Position numbers and translations under genes: made by a program
In this document: positions 1,777 through 48,682 of the stretch, one piece after another
Layout of the letters: every line of letters begins with the position of its first letter
Numbering within the stretch: position 1 is the first letter of the stretch
IMG/VR virus record: IMGVR_UViG_3300031949_000019
Origin: a virus
DNA: 64,000 nt
Reading direction: 5' to 3' (one strand)
Notes under the pieces: generated by a model
What the model saw: the letters and a program-made list of their open reading frames with translations, nothing else
Told to the model about the DNA's origin: nothing
The model's database searches: none

Positions 1777-2120
1777 GCGAACTGGAAGAAAAATTTACTG
1801 ATCAGGAATTCTGCCGAAAGTGGAAGATCAACCGGGCAACCTCGTTTCGTTGGCGAGAACTTGGAATTATCAGCTACATACAGCTTCCAAACGGACAGAT
1901 TCGTTATAGCAAGCGGCACATAGATGAACTTGAAACAAACTTCGCCAAGATGGAAAAGTTAGGCGTGACGCTCAAGGATGTCAGCCGCGCGCTCAAGAGT
2001 GGAGTCATCAGCGTTGGCGTACCGGAATGTAGTAGTGATGTTGGAGTGCCCGAGGATGCGAGAAATTTCGGCAATGGGAAGTCCGCCTTGCACGAGGCGG
2101 GTAGCGCAGGTGTGGCGTAA
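1773..2120 (+). CDS. excisionase-like winged-HTH protein
   Basis: FTDQEFCRKWKINRATSFRWRELGIISYIQLPNGQIRYS is a MerR/Xis-type HTH plus wing; convergent with the integrase. Confidence 0.75.
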   Translation: MSELEEKFTDQEFCRKWKINRATSFRWRELGIISYIQLPNGQIRYSKRHIDELETNFAKMEKLGVTLKDVSRALKSGVISVGVPECSSDVGVPEDARNFGNGKSALHEAGSAGVA

Positions 2121-3050
2121 ATCATGGAAACGAAGATCGGAAATTCCAGCAATTCTTTTTGCGGTAGCCCAAGAACGTTTGACCGTATCAGTGACACCAA
2201 AGACTCGCGTGGCTGGATCCCGCCGGGGGAGTTTCATCAACTCAACCAGCAATCGGGACGTGATAGCAACAGAACGCGGTCGTAAGGTTTTGGTGTTCAT
2301 GGCGAGAATGTTTATGCGCTTGTTTTTCAAATCCACGTCAGACCAGCGGAGTGAAAGAATCTCCCCGCGTCTCATTCCGGTATCGAGGGCGCAGATGATG
2401 ATCGGTCGCAGCTTGGAGCGATTCTCGTCGCAGGCGTCCAGCAACAATTCTTCGTCTGCGGCAGACAGCACGCGGATGCGCTTTGTCTCGTCTGACGATG
2501 AAATGAGCGTGTCGCTACCTGAAAACGGATGCCGGAGTATCCAGCCTTCGCGAAGGGCGATTGAAAACATTCTACGCAGGACAGTGAGTTCCCTGTTGAC
2601 CGTAGCTACGGCTCTTTGTCGCGACGGAGCGATCTTGAATTTTACCTTTGTGTCGAGGCGGTGGGTTTTGAAATGAAGGATGTCGCCGTGGGTTATCGAG
2701 CGGAGTCTTTTGGAGCCAAAATGAGTTTTCAGGATTTCAACAATGCGTTTGACTTCAGCGTGAGAGCGGAGTCCGGCAACTTTTCGGCTTTCGATAAACC
2801 TGGCCGGCGTGGCGTAGCGTTCTTTGTAGTGCTTTGCGAGCTGAGCAAACGACAGGCGCGAGGAATCCAGAGACGCTTCGCCGCGGTCTTCAATTTCCCG
2901 GAGCATGTCTTTGATGAGTTGGCGCGCGTGAGTTCGCGAGAGAGCTTTGCGCCGTTTGCTCTTGCGTTTACCAAATTCGTCGGTGTAAGTGATACGGCCA
3001 TAAATGTCCTTGCCGTCCATCCAGATCGAGCCTGTTCGCGGTCTGCCCAT
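1959..3050 (-). CDS. int: tyrosine recombinase / phage integrase
   Basis: Catalytic motifs LDTGMRRGEIL (R), KT (K), FHDLRH (HxxR), LGHS...TTFRY (H, Y). Start set at MGRPRTGSIW (3050) because the longer ORF runs into the att region. Confidence 0.96.
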   Translation of the reverse strand: MGRPRTGSIWMDGKDIYGRITYTDEFGKRKSKRRKALSRTHARQLIKDMLREIEDRGEASLDSSRLSFAQLAKHYKERYATPARFIESRKVAGLRSHAEVKRIVEILKTHFGSKRLRSITHGDILHFKTHRLDTKVKFKIAPSRQRAVATVNRELTVLRRMFSIALREGWILRHPFSGSDTLISSSDETKRIRVLSAADEELLLDACDENRSKLRPIIICALDTGMRRGEILSLRWSDVDLKNKRINILAMNTKTLRPRSVAITSRLLVELMKLPRRDPATRVFGVTDTVKRSWATAKRIAGISDLRFHDLRHTCATRLVQGGLPIAEISRILGHSNITTTFRYANADDSTLERAADILERHA

Positions 3051-3107
3051 AGGTGCACGTATCCCTGTCACGAACCGAGTGGGCGGGATGCTACCCCAGG
3101 CAGCAGG

Positions 3108-3147
3108 ATGCCGCAAGATTCCCGGACAAAAAAGCACGTTGCGGCAT
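3108..3147. repeat. 9-bp perfect inverted repeat between int and att core
   Basis: ATGCCGCAA (3108-3116) and TTGCGGCAT (3139-3147), 22-nt spacer. Confidence 0.6.
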
Positions 3148-3215
3148 GTTTTATTTGCGGCGTTCGCGCAGCGTGCGACATCGGGCAACATCCTGCAATA
3201 AGTGGCAGGCACACT

Positions 3216-16822: not shown

Positions 16823-17015
16823 CCTGCGTACTTTATCATTGGAATAACGTGGAAGTCACGCGGAATGTCGTGCTTCTAACTTGTTGGCAAACTGAATCCA
16901 TAAGTATTTGTTCAAGTAGGTGTTCACGATTGGCCCACGCTCTGTTGCTTGATCCAGCACACGGCTGGTACATAATTGGGGCTTCCACAACCCTTATCTA
17001 CTAATTGAAGTTCAC

Positions 17016-17156
17016 CTAGAGAGGCTTGTGTAACTTTCCATCCTGTATCTTCTGCGCGACAGCAAAGATCGCAATCTTGATGATTGATTCACAACAGGGA
17101 ATAAGACAGTCTATCAAATGACGGTAGGTGGGAATTACAATACTGAATTTAGACAT
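17016..17156 (-). pseudogene. truncated GT2 N-terminus fused to unrelated tail (46 aa)
   Basis: Hand translation MSKFSIVIPTYRHLIDCLIPCCESIIK-IAIFAVAQKIQDGKLHKPL*; first 27 aa parallel the downstream GT2 start MPRFSIVIPSF...LRTCLESLK. Confidence 0.75.
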
Positions 17157-41257: not shown

Positions 41258-43249
41258 TTAGCGTGGGAGTGGCTGGCCGTAGTCATCAAGCGGTGGTGGC
41301 TTCTTCAAATTCAGGGTTCTCTTGGCAAGCCATGTGGCTATCTCGCCTGTCATTGCGGCTACATCTGGAGGAATGTTTCGCTGCGCTAATTCTTGGCGCG
41401 TATAGCCAGACGGTATCAAGGCGTTGAGCTTTTGCTCTTGAGTTAAGGGCATGTCTGTAGGGCCGAACGTGCCGCCCGCAAGCAACATGCGAGTGCTGTC
41501 GTTCTCATCATCATCGCGCTTTATTGGCTCATCTACTGTCAGACCGCCTTCTGTGTGTTTCACTGGACGACGTCGCCAGTTGAACGCCCCGTCACGATGT
41601 CGCCTCAAGCCATAGTCATCTATTGGAGAAAAGAATTGATCGTCGGCAACAACATCAAACCATGCTGGACAGCCAATCTTCCACAGTCCAGTATTCGTGT
41701 TTTTTTCGTCACGATGGAAAGGATGTGGTTTGTTGTGATCGCAGGTTAGAAGGTGTCTCCATTGGGCGAGTCCTGCGGTTTTTGCTGAATCGCATGGTTG
41801 GAAGTGCCATGCGTGCTTGGAATTCAAAACCATCCTCTCACCCAGCTTTTCGTGGCTCATAAAGTGGCGTTCTATCATTTCCCCTGGCCAGATTGCCGCT
41901 CTTATCGCAATTGACTGCTCGTCAATTCCTACTGCCTGAAAGCTACGACCACGATAGCGAAACACCGAACCTGATAGTTCAGCAACTTGCGGCGCACGCG
42001 CGAGAAACGTCCACGCGCTTCGATGTCCAGTGGAATAACCAATATCTAACCCAACATCACACGGCCAATCAGAGGGAATGCGTCTCATGCCGTACTTTGC
42101 GTCGAACTGTGACCATGAAATAACGTTCGCGCGAGTAACGCGATCATCATATTCAGGTAAAACTCGTTCTTCTTCGGTCGCGGTGAGGTCATGCATGTAC
42201 TCCGCTTGGAACGCTTCAAGACCCGAGCGATCAAGAAATACCTGGCACTTCTTGATATCCATGTCTGCCCATGTTGGGGTACCCTTTTTGATGATATGCC
42301 GAGGGCCGTGCTCGGTCTGCTCAAACTCGATTTGAAGGTCTTCCTTGAAGGCTGGCACAGGGCCACCCCCGATAACACGTCTTACGGCCAGAACCGAGCT
42401 GATTCGAGTAATAATGCGGTTCATCACTGAGTTTGAGTGAATCGGGTTCTGATCGAAGATGATTCGCGTCGAAGCATTGCCCATTGGGAGGATCGAACGC
42501 GCAATCATCATCTCCTTGCCTTCAACTATTACAATCGAGTCTCCAATTTCATCTACATCGGAAAAGACAATAAGCGTCGGGCGCATGTCGAGCACCTTGC
42601 CGCCGCGCAAGGCGACGTTCAGGCCAGCAGGTCGCACCGCCCATCCGCCACCCCGAGGATCGCCAGTCATCAGGAACTCTCTGCCCCATCCAAACTTATT
42701 CCCATGCGCACCGAGCTTTGGTTTGCTCATCCACGGGTAAACTTTGCCGATTTGCTCCGACTCAATACGATCTCTAATGGAAATGACGTGTTCTTCAGCT
42801 TGCTCCTGCTTGCCTGATACCCAGAGGACGTAGCCCCGACGCACCAAACATCCTTCTGCTATCGCGCTCCACTCGCTATGGCTCGATTTTCCCGTGTCCC
42901 GTGCCCACGGTAGCAGCGCAACCAGATCATCAGAATTCAACTCTTTCCCTTCGCGTAGTCGCATGGCTATAGGCCAATACCAAGCCCAAAACTCGTGGTG
43001 AAAGAAAGAGAACGAACCTGTGAAGGTATGCGGGCCAAACTTCCGTAGCCACCATTCGTAGCCTTTGGCTTCATCCAGCATCCCTTTGTTAGCTTGGGCG
43101 TACTGATTGAGCTTTTTGTAGCCTTCGGGATTGTTCTTTTCCAGCCAGTCGAGACGTTTCTGAATTTCTTCAGGCGAACGCGAGAAAAACTCACGAGCTA
43201 TTTCATGGAATGTTGGGGTTGGGGTGTCAGACAATAGGAGCCTCCACAC
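41258..43249 (-). CDS. terL: terminase large subunit
   Basis: PWARDTGKS (Walker A-like), LIVFSDVDE (Walker B-like), GLDIGY...SAW (RNase H/RuvC-like nuclease), DDENDSTR. Confidence 0.85.
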   Translation of the reverse strand: MWRLLLSDTPTPTFHEIAREFFSRSPEEIQKRLDWLEKNNPEGYKKLNQYAQANKGMLDEAKGYEWWLRKFGPHTFTGSFSFFHHEFWAWYWPIAMRLREGKELNSDDLVALLPWARDTGKSSHSEWSAIAEGCLVRRGYVLWVSGKQEQAEEHVISIRDRIESEQIGKVYPWMSKPKLGAHGNKFGWGREFLMTGDPRGGGWAVRPAGLNVALRGGKVLDMRPTLIVFSDVDEIGDSIVIVEGKEMMIARSILPMGNASTRIIFDQNPIHSNSVMNRIITRISSVLAVRRVIGGGPVPAFKEDLQIEFEQTEHGPRHIIKKGTPTWADMDIKKCQVFLDRSGLEAFQAEYMHDLTATEEERVLPEYDDRVTRANVISWSQFDAKYGMRRIPSDWPCDVGLDIGYSTGHRSAWTFLARAPQVAELSGSVFRYRGRSFQAVGIDEQSIAIRAAIWPGEMIERHFMSHEKLGERMVLNSKHAWHFQPCDSAKTAGLAQWRHLLTCDHNKPHPFHRDEKNTNTGLWKIGCPAWFDVVADDQFFSPIDDYGLRRHRDGAFNWRRRPVKHTEGGLTVDEPIKRDDDENDSTRMLLAGGTFGPTDMPLTQEQKLNALIPSGYTRQELAQRNIPPDVAAMTGEIATWLAKRTLNLKKPPPLDDYGQPLPR

Positions 43250-43514
43250 ATCTCACGTCAATCGTAACCAAACGGCGGGTATGGAAGATTTTCTTGTCCC
43301 TGAGCACGTAGAGATATAAATGGCCGAGTCCACCTACTTCACCATTCATCAACATCCTGATTTCGTTTTCGTGAAGTTTTCCAGTTTCGAGTGGACGGCC
43401 GTCGCCATCATCAAAGACTTTTCCGAATTCAATGATTCGCAGAGCGGTAGTGTTGGCAGGATGGTCGGGGAGTGCGGCGCCGTTCGGTAAAGGTTCGGTT
43501 GTTTCTTCGATCAT
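43227..43514 (-). CDS. hypothetical protein
   Basis: 95 aa, ATGA coupling. Confidence 0.6.
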   Translation of the reverse strand: MIEETTEPLPNGAALPDHPANTTALRIIEFGKVFDDGDGRPLETGKLHENEIRMLMNGEVGGLGHLYLYVLRDKKIFHTRRLVTIDVRCVEAPIV

Positions 43515-44272
43515 CCTGAGTTCATCGTGGGGTCGTAACGATTGTAAATTCTTGGGCCTGAGAAATTCAGCGCGGCCGCTTCGAACTGGCGCGAAAGTTC
43601 CCCTTCCTCTGCGCTCAGACTTACAGCCAGATCGCGACGCCGTTCAGCGTTGTACGCTCGCCCTTCCTTGGTTGTTGGATCATTCCATTCAGTTTGCCAT
43701 ACTAGAGCGATGGCACTACGCACTTCGATTAGATCGCAGTCTTCACCCCACGCTGGCGAGCTTGCTAACGCAGCATCGTATGTGTTCAGGGAATTCTGAA
43801 GGTATTTCACCTTGTAGGACGCTTGATACATCGGAGTTGGTTGAAACTCGATGTATGGCGTGTTATCGCGCCAGTAGAATGCACAACGCTGGGCTGTACA
43901 AAAACTTCCATCACCGGGCAGATAGCCATACGCTGCGAGATTATTTGGCAGTCCCCAGTTGTAGGGCATATTCTGTGGCAGAAAGAATGGAATTAGTCGC
44001 GCAATCCAAGTGGGCAATGTCGGAGCATAGGAAATAACCGCCAAGGGAGTTCCAAAGTCTGTTTCATTGATCGTGTAAACCGAAAGATTTGGCTGGACGC
44101 TCACTACCAGATCGTTGAAGTTCCACGGGAGCGAAGTGTTGTGCTTGTGACGAAGTACGGTCCTTGTCTGAGTGCAGACCTGATTGAGAAGTTGGGAGTA
44201 GCCTGGGCGATTCGCGCGCGGATCACCCAATCGCAAGGCCACGTTGTCCATCATCTCAGTTATGCTGGGCAC
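43511..44272 (-). CDS. putative head-tail adaptor / head completion protein
   Basis: Helical N-terminus (ITEMMDNVALRLGD), beta middle, helical C-terminus as in adaptor proteins. Confidence 0.55.
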   Translation of the reverse strand: MPSITEMMDNVALRLGDPRANRPGYSQLLNQVCTQTRTVLRHKHNTSLPWNFNDLVVSVQPNLSVYTINETDFGTPLAVISYAPTLPTWIARLIPFFLPQNMPYNWGLPNNLAAYGYLPGDGSFCTAQRCAFYWRDNTPYIEFQPTPMYQASYKVKYLQNSLNTYDAALASSPAWGEDCDLIEVRSAIALVWQTEWNDPTTKEGRAYNAERRRDLAVSLSAEEGELSRQFEAAALNFSGPRIYNRYDPTMNSG

Positions 44273-44443
44273 TTAATGCGTCTCCCAATACCTTACGAAA
44301 TACTGAATTACTGCTTCCTTCCCGTCGATTTTTACCCACAGGGGATCAAGTTTAATACGTCCCTGTTCCACATATTTTCTAACGGTGTGATCTGCGCCGT
44401 TGACAGCTAGACTAAGCCTGAATCTTAACCAAGAATATGTCAC
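44273..44443 (-). CDS. 56-aa cargo ORF
   Basis: GTG start behind the AAGGAG carried by the duplicated gene end; MTYSWLRF...YWETH*. Confidence 0.5.
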   Translation of the reverse strand: MTYSWLRFRLSLAVNGADHTVRKYVEQGRIKLDPLWVKIDGKEAVIQYFVRYWETH

Positions 44444-44448
44444 GGCAA

Positions 44449-44598
44449 TTACTCTCCTTGCTGCGCAGCCTGTGCTTCGCGCTCGCGTTTGGCTTTTGTA
44501 CAAACGGTATTTAAGGCTTGGGCATAGCCGGGGCGATTCGCGCGCGAATCGCCCAATCGCAAGGCCACGTTGTCCATCATTTCAGTGATAGTTGGCAT
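44449..44598 (-). pseudogene. 49-aa chimeric mini-ORF: adaptor-gene start fused in frame to end of 45319-46569
   Basis: MPTITEMMDNVALRLGDSRANRPGYAQALNTVCT-KAKREREAQAAQQGE*; 44449-44499 matches 45319-45369 at 49/51 nt. Confidence 0.85.
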
Positions 44599-44604
44599 TT
44601 AGAT

Positions 44605-44817
44605 TCACCAGCGAATCATAAGACCTCCAATTGGCTGGACATCACACTCGAAACCACGCCGTTGAAGTTCGTTGACCACGCCTTCCTGAACCGCCAGGAC
44701 TCGGCAACTATTTAAGGTGCGTGCGCACCCGGCTATCAATCTTAAAGTTTCTTCAAGAGAGCATATAGGGGGTTCGTACAACTCTCGTGCTTTGGCCGCC
44801 GTCATATCCTCTAACAT
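44605..44817 (-). CDS. hypothetical cargo protein
   Basis: 70 aa, AAAGGAGG RBS. Confidence 0.65.
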   Translation of the reverse strand: MLEDMTAAKARELYEPPICSLEETLRLIAGCARTLNSCRVLAVQEGVVNELQRRGFECDVQPIGGLMIRW

Positions 44818-44932
44818 TGTCCCCTCCTTTCAAGATAGGCCGCGTCTCCGGCTTTTACGGAGTAGCGGGATGTGTAAATCAAAAAAGCGTCCACCCTTCG
44901 GTTCTGTCCAAAACGCCCTCCGACACGATTCG

Positions 44933-45319
44933 TTACCTACTCGCCATCCCGCACGACTGCTCGTCACGGCCCGCAAACATTTTCAACCGACGTTGGTGTA
45001 TCGGCGTTCGGAATTGAAATCCCATTGAACCCTGAGCGCGGATCGTCATACAGCAATTACCCGGCTCACTCCCACACGTCGGGCACTTCGTTGTTGCCAC
45101 TACCTGATCGTCGGCAATTATCACTTCAGGTTTGGGTGCGGGAGAGGCAAGCACATCGTCGCGCGTCCACGGAACATCGTTAGCTCTTAGCCATTCCGTG
45201 ACCAGTTTTATCACATCTTCCGCGCACGTTACCTTTGTATCACGCGAGGCCGCACGGCCAAGTTCAATAGAGAGAATCGTGCGAGTCACGCCGCCATGCT
45301 CAAATAGCCCGATCTTCAT
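44933..45319 (-). CDS. hypothetical cargo protein with CPTCG zinc ribbon
   Basis: Start MKIGLFE overlapping upstream TAA (TAATG); CPTCGSEPG..C...H. Confidence 0.65.
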   Translation of the reverse strand: MKIGLFEHGGVTRTILSIELGRAASRDTKVTCAEDVIKLVTEWLRANDVPWTRDDVLASPAPKPEVIIADDQVVATTKCPTCGSEPGNCCMTIRAQGSMGFQFRTPIHQRRLKMFAGRDEQSCGMASR

Positions 45320-46569
45320 TACTCTCCTTGCTGTGCAGCCTGTGCTTCGCGCTCGCGCTTGGCTTTTGTGGCCCAATGCTCCTTTGCTGGAATCACTGGA
45401 TTAGGTAACGGATCATCAATCACCGGGATTTCACCGGCCATGAACGCCCCACTTGCCCCGCTCGCTCCTGACGCACCGGATGCGCCTGACGCTCCGGCTT
45501 GGCCGGGAGCACCTGTCTCAGCCTTCATCGTGTCTTCGTCGATTTGCACTCCAGTCGCGGTGCGGTTGTCAAACACTGGCTCCAACACCGCTGCGGCGCG
45601 GCGGTCGGCTTCGATACGTGCTTGTTTTTCCTCGATTGTCGTTTGCATCCATGCCTTGAACATCTCGCGGAGTTCCGGATCAGTTCCCGCACTTGCAGCC
45701 TTCTGAATCTCGCGATCCTGTCGCGCCATGCCCAGCTGTTCGAGTAATACAAGGTCGGTCGCGGTATAGCGCGGAATGTAGCCTTGTGTCTTTGAACCGA
45801 TCTCTCTCATTTTTGCGTGAGAGTTTTGAATAGTTGCTGAGGCGTAGTCGCGAAATGCCGTGAACGATTCCATGAACTTGTCTACGATTCCCCGGATCAT
45901 CGTGTGAGCAGTGGCATCATCAAGCAACTGTCCGATGTCATCGAGCAGAACCGGGACAAACGGGTACTGCGGGAAGATCGTTCGCTGGATTTCCCAGACG
46001 GTTGGGTCAACGTCAACCCTCAATCCTCCGCCTACGTCTATCGAGCGAGGAACGTAATTCTGAGCTTTCAGGTCTGAGAGTTCAACGATGCCAAGCCGTG
46101 TGTTCTCCATGATGTTGTGATGGTCGAGAATCCAGCGGATTTGGTCGCCGGGATAAGCGAGTTTACCCATCATGCTGCCCACCGGGGAAGGTGTGGTGCT
46201 GATTCCTGTACCGCGCGCCGGAGGTAACATGGGCGGAACATAGCCGGGAGGTATCGGTGTTGGGAAATAACTGCCATCACCCTCACTGGCTTTCTTTACC
46301 CAGTCTGCCGGTCGTGGATCGTGGGTATCCTTCAGGAGTGGAGTAATGCGCCCTTTACGCAGGAAGTTCTTCACGTAGCGAAGGCAGGGATTTGTGACTT
46401 CCAGCCCTCCCGCTTTTGTCCACGGGCGATCTGAAGCCGTTTGCGGATCGATTAAACTCCCGACAAACGTCAGATAGCGTGGTGCCTCGTTGTCGAGGTT
46501 GGATTGAGGTGGCTCAAATATCCGGCCCTCAGTTGCAATACCTTCAGAAACTTCCATTACTTGACTCAC
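45319..46569 (-). CDS. conserved head-region hypothetical protein with short GASGASG tract
   Basis: 416 aa in capsid operon. Confidence 0.75.
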   Translation of the reverse strand: MSQVMEVSEGIATEGRIFEPPQSNLDNEAPRYLTFVGSLIDPQTASDRPWTKAGGLEVTNPCLRYVKNFLRKGRITPLLKDTHDPRPADWVKKASEGDGSYFPTPIPPGYVPPMLPPARGTGISTTPSPVGSMMGKLAYPGDQIRWILDHHNIMENTRLGIVELSDLKAQNYVPRSIDVGGGLRVDVDPTVWEIQRTIFPQYPFVPVLLDDIGQLLDDATAHTMIRGIVDKFMESFTAFRDYASATIQNSHAKMREIGSKTQGYIPRYTATDLVLLEQLGMARQDREIQKAASAGTDPELREMFKAWMQTTIEEKQARIEADRRAAAVLEPVFDNRTATGVQIDEDTMKAETGAPGQAGASGASGASGASGASGAFMAGEIPVIDDPLPNPVIPAKEHWATKAKREREAQAAQQGE

Positions 46570-46868
46570 GAATTATCTCCTTTGTTGTCGCTAAAACTGG
46601 CTGTTAACCGTGGAATCGCGTTAATGGACACACGGCGCAAATGGATGTCTATATTTTCGCGCCCCGGCACATTGCTCATTAGCTCAATCAGCATGTTGAG
46701 GCTTGACTGAGTAAGGCAGGCTCCTGCAAAATCCATCTCGACACTTGGGTTCCTGATCGTAGCCCACGCGAACTCTTTGTTAAGTTGCTCTCGCCTGCGA
46801 AGGTAGTGTTTCAAATAGAACGCAGGCGTCCTAAATCTTGGAAACCATTCTTGAAAAGTCGCAATCAT
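46566..46868 (-). CDS. hypothetical protein
   Basis: 100 aa, AAGGAG RBS. Confidence 0.6.
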   Translation of the reverse strand: MIATFQEWFPRFRTPAFYLKHYLRRREQLNKEFAWATIRNPSVEMDFAGACLTQSSLNMLIELMSNVPGRENIDIHLRRVSINAIPRLTASFSDNKGDNS

Positions 46869-46880
46869 TTCACTCCTTTA

Positions 46881-47648
46881 CTAGTTCAAAAGATACAAGC
46901 CTGATTCGGTCCTTCGAAGTCCACTTGTTGTCACTGGCTTTCTGGCCCAGAACTCGGCCATCTGCCGCGTGAAATCATCAACGTCCGCTACTTGCCGATC
47001 TGCTCGATACTGTTGCGCGTTCACCGCATCTCGTTGCGCTTGCGGGGCACTGAAAAACCTAATGTCGCGTGTCGGCTGAACGTCCGTGTCATTTCGCGCC
47101 TCGTATACCGTTTTGCGAACCCAGTCCAACAGCCTCTCATTCGGATCGAGATACTTACCCCAACAATGCGCGTATTGCTCGCCGCACTCACAAGTATCAC
47201 CATTACAGGGACAACACTCGCCATCGTGATAACTGTGCGCTCGGAGTTCGATGTAGCGTTCAGATGGACATGGGCCTTTCCAGTCCCAAACTGTCCCGTC
47301 ATAAACGCTGTACCGGCCCATCTCCCATGTCGATGCGTACTGCTCTGGCTCAAGCCGTTCCAGCAGCACCCAGCGAGGAGCAGCTACCTTTTCTCCGTTG
47401 GCATCGTTACCGTATACAAAGATCGGAAGTGTGTATCCAATCGGATCTTCGGTCATCCGGTGCGGATACCACCGTAGTTCATCCGGCGCCCACGCAAGTT
47501 TGATTAACGGTCGCTCATCGCGTGTTCCGGTAATGCTGTCAATGCGCTTCTGAAACGCTGTTGCGTCCAGCCGAGAATAGCTGGCAGGTGGCCCCATTCG
47601 CGGCGACCACCTACTAGCATTATCCAAAGAGTCGTCAAGCTCGCTCAT
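46881..47648 (-). CDS. hypothetical protein with Cys/His cluster
   Basis: Start set at MSELDD (TAATG overlap); H..ECCPC...CECG...HCWG. Confidence 0.7.
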   Translation of the reverse strand: MSELDDSLDNASRWSPRMGPPASYSRLDATAFQKRIDSITGTRDERPLIKLAWAPDELRWYPHRMTEDPIGYTLPIFVYGNDANGEKVAAPRWVLLERLEPEQYASTWEMGRYSVYDGTVWDWKGPCPSERYIELRAHSYHDGECCPCNGDTCECGEQYAHCWGKYLDPNERLLDWVRKTVYEARNDTDVQPTRDIRFFSAPQAQRDAVNAQQYRADRQVADVDDFTRQMAEFWARKPVTTSGLRRTESGLYLLN

Positions 47649-47995: not shown

Positions 47996-48682
47996 ATGCC
48001 TGAGCTGAATCTTACCATCCTGTCAAAACTTCGTCGCCCAACTTCTAAACACGTCAAACGAGTTAGCCTTGCGAGGCAAAAGTTTCATCGTCTTACTGTG
48101 TTCGGTCTTATGGGCTATCACGTTAAGACCCTCCATCCGTACTGGCTCTGCCGATGCAGATGCGGCAACTGGAGCATCGTGCTCGGCCAGAAACTAAAGA
48201 ACGGTAAAACCAAGTCTTGCGGCTGCTACAAGGATGAAAACACAGGCAACAGAAACCGCACTCATGGTATGTCAAAGACCTTGGCGTATAGCCGATGGTC
48301 GGACATGCACAGTCGCTGCTACAACGCTAAAGTAAAACATTTCCCCGATTACGGTGGTCGCGGAATCACTATCGAAACCCGATGGCACAGTTTTGAAAAT
48401 TTCTATGCCGACATGAACGAGCCACCTAATCCGTCCTACGAAATAGAGCGCAGAAACAACGATGGAAACTACGGCCCTGCTAACTGTTATTGGGCTACCA
48501 AAAAGCAGCAGGCTCGAAACAAGCGCGGTACTCGATGGATTACCATTAACGGCATTACAAAATGCATGGCCGAATGGTTAGATTCCTCCAGCGTCAAGCA
48601 ACCCGTCGCTTGGAAGCGCCTAGATCGTGGCTGGACGCCGGAGGAAGCCCTTGGTTTCAAAGAACGTGTAAACCGTTCGTGA
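47996..48682 (+). CDS. free-standing HNH-type homing endonuclease, antisense in capsid operon
   Basis: WLCRCRCG...KSCGC...HGMS...RC...YGGRGI...W..FENF..DM...IERRNNDGNY.P.NC.WAT..QQARN family signature. Confidence 0.92.
   Translation: MPELNLTILSKLRRPTSKHVKRVSLARQKFHRLTVFGLMGYHVKTLHPYWLCRCRCGNWSIVLGQKLKNGKTKSCGCYKDENTGNRNRTHGMSKTLAYSRWSDMHSRCYNAKVKHFPDYGGRGITIETRWHSFENFYADMNEPPNPSYEIERRNNDGNYGPANCYWATKKQQARNKRGTRWITINGITKCMAEWLDSSSVKQPVAWKRLDRGWTPEEALGFKERVNRS

Follow-up and report, generated by a model that had tools for sequence, protein, structure and literature searches.

Phage genomes are mosaics, and new genes are thought to enter them through rare illegitimate joins; to our knowledge, the joins themselves are almost never preserved. 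Here we describe a locus of a soil phage, contained in the 64-kb stretch of DNA IMGVR_UViG_3300031949_000019 (hereafter the window, whose numbering is used for all coordinates), in which two sets of small accessory genes, referred to as cargo 1 and cargo 2, are arranged in tandem between two genes, A and B, and are separated by an open reading frame (ORF) of 49 amino acids (aa) made of a copy of the start of B and a copy of the end of A. The evidence that the two inserts were stacked by illegitimate recombination is indirect but convergent, and such an origin is considered probable.

A literature search for a described equivalent gave the PeSL cassettes of the T4-type phages RB49 and phi1 as the closest precedent (Arbiol et al. 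2010, PMC2839356). In these phages, small ORFans are flanked by repeated short expression modules, and recombination between the repeats was put forward as the means by which ORFans are gained, lost and reshuffled at permissible sites; the comparison with integrons was made by those authors themselves. Morons and illegitimate recombination at gene boundaries in mosaic phages, as studied by Hendrix and colleagues, are known here in the summarised form given in the same paper (PMC2839356). With respect to the recombination of diverged sequences, lambda Red is described by Martinsohn et al. (2008, PMC2327257) as recombining genes with 22% divergence. Integrons, including those found in phages, have been treated by Qi et al. 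(2023, PMC9892861).

Layout of the inserts and of the chimeric joint

Along the minus strand, gene A is followed by cargo 1a, cargo 1b, the 49-aa ORF (hereafter mini-ORF), cargo 2 and gene B, the order that had been given in the initial annotation of this DNA, and all the parts were located on the minus strand as listed below, with lengths in amino acids or nucleotides (nt).

46569..45319, minus strand: gene A, 416 aa, a conserved virion-module protein with homologues of 390-430 aa
45318..45369, minus strand: resident A-end copy, made up of the 16 terminal codons and the stop, with the AAGGAG Shine-Dalgarno predicted to serve cargo 1a
45319..44933, minus strand: cargo 1a, 128 aa, its ATG overlapping the TAA of gene A
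Between cargo 1a and cargo 1b: spacer of 115 nt
44817..44605, minus strand: cargo 1b, 70 aa, with its own strong AAGGAGG, 6 nt ahead of the ATG
44598..44449, minus strand: mini-ORF, 49 aa, B-start copy fused to A-end copy
44598..44497, minus strand: B-start copy inside the mini-ORF, codons 1-34
44499..44449, minus strand: A-end copy inside the mini-ORF, Thr34 being common to both parts
44499..44495, minus strand: joint of the mini-ORF, within ACAAA
44442..44448, minus strand: TTGCCGT remnant, 7 nt of the B start region, directly after the stop of the A-end copy
44443..44273, minus strand: cargo 2, 56 aa, with a GTG start
44272..43511, minus strand: gene B, 253 aa, its GTG directly after the TAA of cargo 2
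44192..44275, minus strand: resident B-start copy, the partner of the repeat in the mini-ORF

The composition proposed for the mini-ORF in the initial annotation was confirmed as well, since 34 codons of B are joined in frame to a copy of the last 16 codons and stop of A, with identity to the resident A end at 49/51 nt. The AAGGAG that the A-end copy had been said to supply for cargo 2 is located at 44459-44454, 10 nt ahead of the GTG. The structural description in the initial annotation holds in all its particulars. When the whole window was compared with itself by BLAST, the top two matches were the B-start pair (44192-44275 vs 44518-44601; 84 nt, 87% identity, E 7e-22) and the A-end pair (44448-44499 vs 45318-45369; 52 nt, 96%, E 5e-17), and the remaining repeats were all within collagen-like fibre genes. 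Across the full 34 codons, the B-start pair is identical at 80/102 nt and 29/34 aa. Cargo 1 is thus bracketed by the 52-nt repeats (96%) and cargo 2 by the 84-nt repeats (87%), and the two cargos share no sequence similarity. The motif AAGGAGAGTAR is present in the window only in the two A-end copies, indicating a single site in this genome. Past gene B, a 95-aa ORF is followed by the gene for the large terminase TerL (PHROG 38), and the genes flanking the array are virion genes and TerL.

Junction alleles in relatives and the origin of the joint

The junction between A and B was compared among a total of 23 lineages, the window and 22 relatives, of which 21 were available as DNA and one as a gene table only. 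A homologue of gene A is located directly upstream of B in all the relatives, and in 18/23 lineages the gap from the A stop to the B start is -8 to +3 nt, the state referred to here as an empty junction. In the sub-lineage nearest to the window, A ends with CAA GGA GAG TAR and B starts at once with TTG, GTG or ATG followed by CC. The window-type A tail, ending in AAQQGE, was found next to an empty junction in both L027 and L030; the L027 junction reads GGAGAGTAG on the A side (A stop TAG) and TTGCCGAC on the B side, and at the empty junction of L002 the TAA is directly followed by TTGCCGTCC.

The five occupied junctions (window, L006, L012, L028 and L031) contain a total of seven unrelated gene families. 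Homologous ORFs of 65-69 aa with 57% identity are present in L012 and L031. The L006/L007 junction carries a gene for an HNH endonuclease on the opposite strand (PHROG 374, E 1e-54), and the L006 protein is 37% identical to the product of the window gene at 47996-48682 (+); in L006, the A stop is followed by GTGCCTACG, a stretch of 9 nt identical at 8/9 positions to the B start of L006 itself, and then by the HNH gene. In L028, the order is A, a 79-aa ORF, a junction remnant, an 80-aa ORF and B. The remnant, at L028:1038-1055 and 75 nt past the first cargo, is the exact 18-nt AAGGAGAGTAG plus TTGCCGA, identical to the L027 junction, and by its sequence L028 is a second, independent two-cassette array. 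As part of the explanation favored below, the A-B boundary in this phage family is likely to be a recurrent landing place for small accessory genes.

The B-start copy within the mini-ORF differs from the resident B at 6, 2 and 14 positions in its successive 34-nt thirds (chi-square p = 0.0015), the corresponding matches being 28/34, 32/34 and 20/34. For its last third the nearest allele is that of L006 (30/34, with the LNTVCT motif), and for its first third that of L027 (31/34). Because the differences are uneven and the matches are to other lineages, the sequence indicates that the B-start copy is a different allele, composed as a mosaic of other alleles, rather than a local duplicate that has decayed. 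As at the empty junctions, TTGCCGT follows the A-end copy, which indicates that this copy was once a true A end abutting a B, and cargo 2 would then have entered after approximately base 7 of that B. The fusion point had been annotated as sharing a few nucleotides around a Thr codon, and this proved correct: the shared sequence is ACA (3 nt), extending at most to ACAAA (5 nt) should the donor B have had Asn35, which is present in the L006-type alleles. Relative to the A-B boundary, the joint is displaced by 48 nt into A and by 102 nt into B.

The B-start allele, the TTGCCGT remnant, the L006 pattern and the L028 array all fit one process, out-of-register recombination, and we consider the best reading to be an unequal crossover, at the level of microhomology, between two related phages with different inserts at the same hot spot. 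This reading is judged to have a good probability, the two-parent crossover itself being what we infer from the alleles. In the normal state, the A stop, with a Shine-Dalgarno sequence in the last codons of the gene, directly abuts the first codon of B. Out-of-register recombination would have taken place between two related phages that each carried an insert of its own at the A-B boundary, the recombinant following parent 1 as far as codon 34 of its B and parent 2 from a point 16 codons short of the end of its A, at a microhomology of 3-5 nt (ACA or ACAAA). The stretch between the crossover points would thereby be duplicated with one copy per parent, parent 1 giving the A-end, cargo 1 and the B-start, and parent 2 giving the A-end, TTGCCGT, cargo 2 and B. 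The mini-ORF would be the in-frame scar of the joint, tolerated and perhaps useful because it ends with the AAGGAG-plus-stop module of A, which would place ribosomes 10 nt ahead of the weak GTG of cargo 2, and all the ORFs, lacking individual promoters, would be carried by the transcript of the late operon. Since phage recombinases recombine diverged sequences, it is a fair prediction that either cassette could later be lost via the 52-nt or the 84-nt repeats. If this reading is correct, the joint is preserved intact and readable as a few-base crossover between alleles of one gene boundary, and its product keeps all the genes translatable by re-using the ribosome-binding end of the upstream gene. 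Together with the L028 array, the seven gene families at this boundary make it a concrete and testable hot spot in a structural operon, where accessory genes possibly involved in host interaction or anti-defence accumulate.

Four points weigh against this crossover. Protein searches gave no relative with cargo 1 alone or cargo 2 alone, the search with cargo 2 being weak, and neither parent has been observed; single-cargo relatives, to which the initial annotation had pointed as a check, were not found, since the cargo proteins are ORFans. In its middle third, the B-start copy hardly differs from the resident B (32/34 matches), so that a mosaic donor or a later gene conversion is needed. For the mini-ORF and the cargo genes alike, expression is a prediction. 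Finally, the contig of the independent Logan assembly that carries the same locus probably derives from the window's own sample and thus represents a second assembler, not second DNA. Altogether, the annotated origin, namely, alleles of the junction from different phages stacked by illegitimate recombination, gains from the allelic B-start copy, the TTGCCGT remnant, the empty junctions of L027 and L030 and the L028 array, but the single-cargo parents that it implies are both missing.

A wider version of the crossover model, offered tentatively and considered rather unlikely in its full form, is that the A end (Shine-Dalgarno plus stop) and the B start serve as a family-wide portable linker, by which co-infecting relatives would swap, stack or shed accessory genes through short or homeologous recombination. 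The locus would then be a recombinase-free cassette array in an essential late operon, perhaps kept active by breaks of a junction-homing HNH enzyme and with chimeric mini-ORFs as translational relays.

A site-specific cassette system, in which a recombinase, or a homing endonuclease together with repair, inserts cassettes serially at a core formed by the A stop and the B start, and in which the junction copies are target sites regenerated as in an integron, is improbable. The left ends of the inserts do cluster 0-9 nt from the first base of B in five lineages, in L028 a 7-nt direct repeat (TTGCCGA) borders cargo Y and a repeat of the A-end, 10 nt long, borders cargo X, and an HNH endonuclease gene stands in this very junction in L006, with a homologue elsewhere in the window. 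Selection to keep A and B whole would by itself, however, also produce clustered insert ends, and the joint in the window is off the core by the distances given above. In addition, no nuclease or recombinase domain was detected in any cargo ORF of the window (Pfam and PHROG, with Atlas for nuclease), the sole tyrosine recombinase, at a distance of 41 kb, is of the ordinary phage-integrase type, the cassette ends show no attC-like inverted structure, and no Rfam match was obtained in 43000-47000.

Equally hard to accept is a local tandem duplication in one genome, by which the A-end, an old insert and the B-start were copied in place, one insert was later replaced and the copies diverged. Such a history would agree with the 96% identity between the A-end copies and the 94% identity of the middle of the B-start copy to the resident B, but cargo 1 and cargo 2 are dissimilar, the strongly non-uniform differences in the B-start copy point to other alleles, and the replacement of an insert would itself need a second exchange with another phage.

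That the assembler joined two strains with different inserts into one contig is a very remote prospect, even though the data are short reads from a soil metagenome and the sequence was found in one public run. Exact matches between the copies of the two repeats extend over 29 nt and 23 nt at most, and within 44150-45450 every 31-mer is unique, so that the de Bruijn graph has no branch to mis-join, and the joint between B-start and A-end, sharing at most 5 nt, must be present in the reads. The Logan assembly, made separately, contains a 20,973-bp contig with the same gene order at a k-mer depth of 28, and the comparison with the window showed 0 differences over 4 kb, uniform depth and no alternative joint, this comparison being one of contigs, with rare deletion variants beyond its reach. 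Mis-assembly is thus unlikely.

Genes of the locus and neighboring boundaries

Public metagenomes yielded a total of 85 homologues of gene B, the contigs that carry them reaching about 77 kb in length. A profile search of genome contigs with gene B gave no relative, so that no host or prophage copy came to light. The AlphaFold model of B has a predicted local distance difference test score (pLDDT) of 77. The best matches in the PDB were the portal-adaptor chains of the podoviruses KHP30, VP1, A4, SU10, N4 and crAss001 (E 2e-5 to 1e-3), and nearly all of the 14 matches at E <= 1e-3 were portal-adaptor or neck chains from tail, neck or portal complexes. The fold matches of this model had a Foldseek probability of 0.96-1.0, yet template-modeling (TM) scores of 0.25-0.32 and root-mean-square deviations of 10-20 Å. 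Based on these matches, gene B likely encodes a head-to-tail adaptor (neck) protein, an assignment that is not firm.

Gene A has a Gly-x-Ser linker followed by a variable C-terminal tail, which in the alignment of the family is either a CxCG...H...C zinc finger or a basic helix; the window tail is of the basic-helix type. No match of A was obtained in Pfam, PHROG or PDB, the comparison of an A profile with PDB sequences also being empty, and its AlphaFold model (pLDDT 48) was too poor for a structure search. An 11-residue piece, FDNRTATGVQI, is encoded within A at 45540-45575 (-) and is lacking at that position in other relatives, and in L006 a homologue of this piece adjoins the zinc-finger tail, just before it. 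The 3' part of gene A thus looks like a patchwork of tail alleles with the scar of an earlier intragenic recombination. In L006:4060-4230 (also L007:100-270), gene A stops at TGG TTT TGA C and the zinc-finger tail, with FVCSGCG and a terminal QGE, resumes in the +1 frame. The stop site resembles a +1 frameshift signal of the RF2 type (xUU UGA C), and the sequence is identical in the contigs of two runs; possible explanations of this break are programmed frameshifting, decay of the gene to a pseudogene and a further recombination joint that is out of frame.

The Pfam and PHROG searches were negative for both A and B, for the mini-ORF and for the cargo ORFs, with the exception of one sub-threshold match of cargo 1a, to the phage zinc-finger DNA-binding domain PF24623 (E 5.8e-4, under the curated cut-off), and the same zinc-finger lead was given by Atlas at 0.81, a weak lead. 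Among 5.8 billion proteins, the sole match of cargo 1a was the query itself, as was the case for cargo 1b among 1.84 billion representatives. Cargo 1b is predicted to have a small alpha/beta fold, and Atlas gave a structure match at a TM score of 0.75 to uncharacterised phage clusters, which is also a weak lead. By these searches cargo 1a and 1b are ORFans. For cargo 2, a large protein search found no homologue, the search being weak since cargo 2 was never called as a gene, public gene callers having missed this ORF. Scans of IMG/VR with the three cargo proteins gave nothing beyond one match of cargo 2, 17 residues in L009, which was rejected as spurious because it falls within a 2,513-aa gene, in another reading frame, of a phage with high GC content. 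A blastn search of the region against 50,697 phage records gave zero matches, and the exact A-end pattern gave 0 matches in IMG/VR.

The three cargo ORFs have codon scores of 0.10-0.13 per codon, positive in their own frame only, the control values being 0.19 +/- 0.08 for in-frame chunks and -0.33 +/- 0.15 for off-frame chunks; the codon usage of the cargo ORFs is therefore phage-like. As a general pattern, the Shine-Dalgarno sequence is inside the end of the preceding ORF, that of gene B being GGGAGA within the end of cargo 2, and cargo 1b has its own AAGGAGG. No promoter-like or terminator-like site was found by a consensus scan of the minus strand in 43200-46700.

The mini-ORF was also called as a gene by the Logan gene caller on the separately assembled contig, and its translation and its coupling to cargo 2 are inferred. 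It is best read as a recombination scar that would keep ribosomes flowing, not as a gene selected for its product. Within its B-start copy, 44531-44554 forms a perfect palindrome of 24 nt, corresponding to a predicted RNA hairpin of 10 bp (-19.5 kcal/mol). The same stretch in the resident B has two mismatches, and one of the two changes that perfect the palindrome replaces the family-invariant Pro18 with Ser in the B-start copy. This palindrome looks like a quasi-palindrome correction under relaxed selection, which would fit the mini-ORF being a scar.

Genes on the reverse strand are located at differing boundaries of the virion module in the window (47996-48682, +), L006:4229-4921 (-), L008:5704-6495 (-) and L031:1170-1745 (-), those of L008 and L031 being known from gene tables only. 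The window and L006 genes belong to one HNH family (PHROG 374), as expected for free-standing homing genes, and this family could supply the double-strand breaks that make the boundaries of the virion module recombine. On a Joint Genome Institute contig with P0019, known as a gene table only, the gene just upstream of A encodes 72 aa with a hairpin domain of the Acb2/Tad1 type, a family of anti-defence sponges. The corresponding place in the window (46566-46868) is taken by a 100-aa ORF unrelated to it. Neighboring boundaries of the same module may thus be occupied by accessory and anti-defence genes.

Elsewhere in the window, a tyrosine integrase is encoded at 1959-3212 (-; PF00589, E 1e-29), and the phage is therefore probably temperate. 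A second gene-start stub was observed at 16836-17156 (-), where a 46-aa ORF (17016-17156) starts with MSKFSIVIP as against MPRFSIVIP of a glycosyltransferase and then diverges; this ORF is followed by a 50-aa ORF and then by the real glycosyltransferase gene. The large terminase has 1,344 aa in L001 (6999-11033), 941 aa in L027 (2295-5120) and 663 aa in the window. The L027 protein gave weak intein and Hint matches and probably carries inteins, which would be a further layer of selfish elements in this phage family.

Comparison with known systems

The array appears to work like the PeSL cassettes with respect to small ORFan genes placed between repeats, but PeSLs are intergenic modules of a sigma-70 promoter and a stem-loop terminator, scattered in hyperplastic early regions, whereas the repeats in the window are coding pieces of two essential late genes, carry no promoter or terminator and mark one genomic site.

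With the morons of Hendrix and Juhala, as far as these are summarised in PMC2839356, the locus shares the presence of extra genes between two neighbors that adjoin each other in relatives (the A-B junction is empty in 18/23 lineages). Such genes were apparently acquired through joining without homology and retained because the core genes remain intact. In that summary, classical morons bring their own promoter and terminator and their joints are usually not visible. The inserts in the window, in contrast, are promoterless and co-oriented, and their joint is kept as an in-frame chimera, which indicates that both partners were alleles of the same junction. Given the lack of a promoter or terminator on the minus strand, the inserts are to be regarded as passengers of the late transcript and not as classical morons.

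Homeologous recombination is a known route by which repeats of 87% and 96% identity could exchange or delete a cassette, but the substrates in PMC2327257 are of gene length, whereas the repeats here are 52 and 84 nt and the founding joint has 3-5 nt of homology. A likeness was also noted to MIRU-like junction duplications, in which the start of the downstream gene is joined in frame to the end of the upstream gene (here 34 B codons and 16 A codons sharing Thr34) with the stop-to-start linkage kept. Plain cases of this type are head-to-tail copies from one genome with nothing between them, whereas the copies in the window are taken to be alleles of different genomes and have unrelated genes between them. 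In insertions of free-standing homing endonucleases, the nuclease is inside the insert; none was detected in the cargo of the window, and it is present only in the relative L006.

The initial annotation had described the locus as an integron-like array. The cassettes are indeed promoterless and co-oriented, all on the minus strand, in an array that could in principle grow and shrink, but no integron integrase, attI, attC or Pc promoter adjoins it, and its repeats are coding gene ends. A search for intI next to the array found none, the sole PF00589 protein being the distant integrase at 1959-3212. Likewise, attC was not found at the cassette bounds, for which no dedicated attC model was used; the bounds are direct A-end and B-start copies, and the only palindrome is inside the B-start copy. 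The locus is therefore not an integron, and that label is an analogy only.

For the annotation of other phages, the comparison carries the caution that short ORFs resembling gene starts or gene ends can be recombination scars. Among the described systems, the locus is a well-preserved variant of known phage mosaicism.

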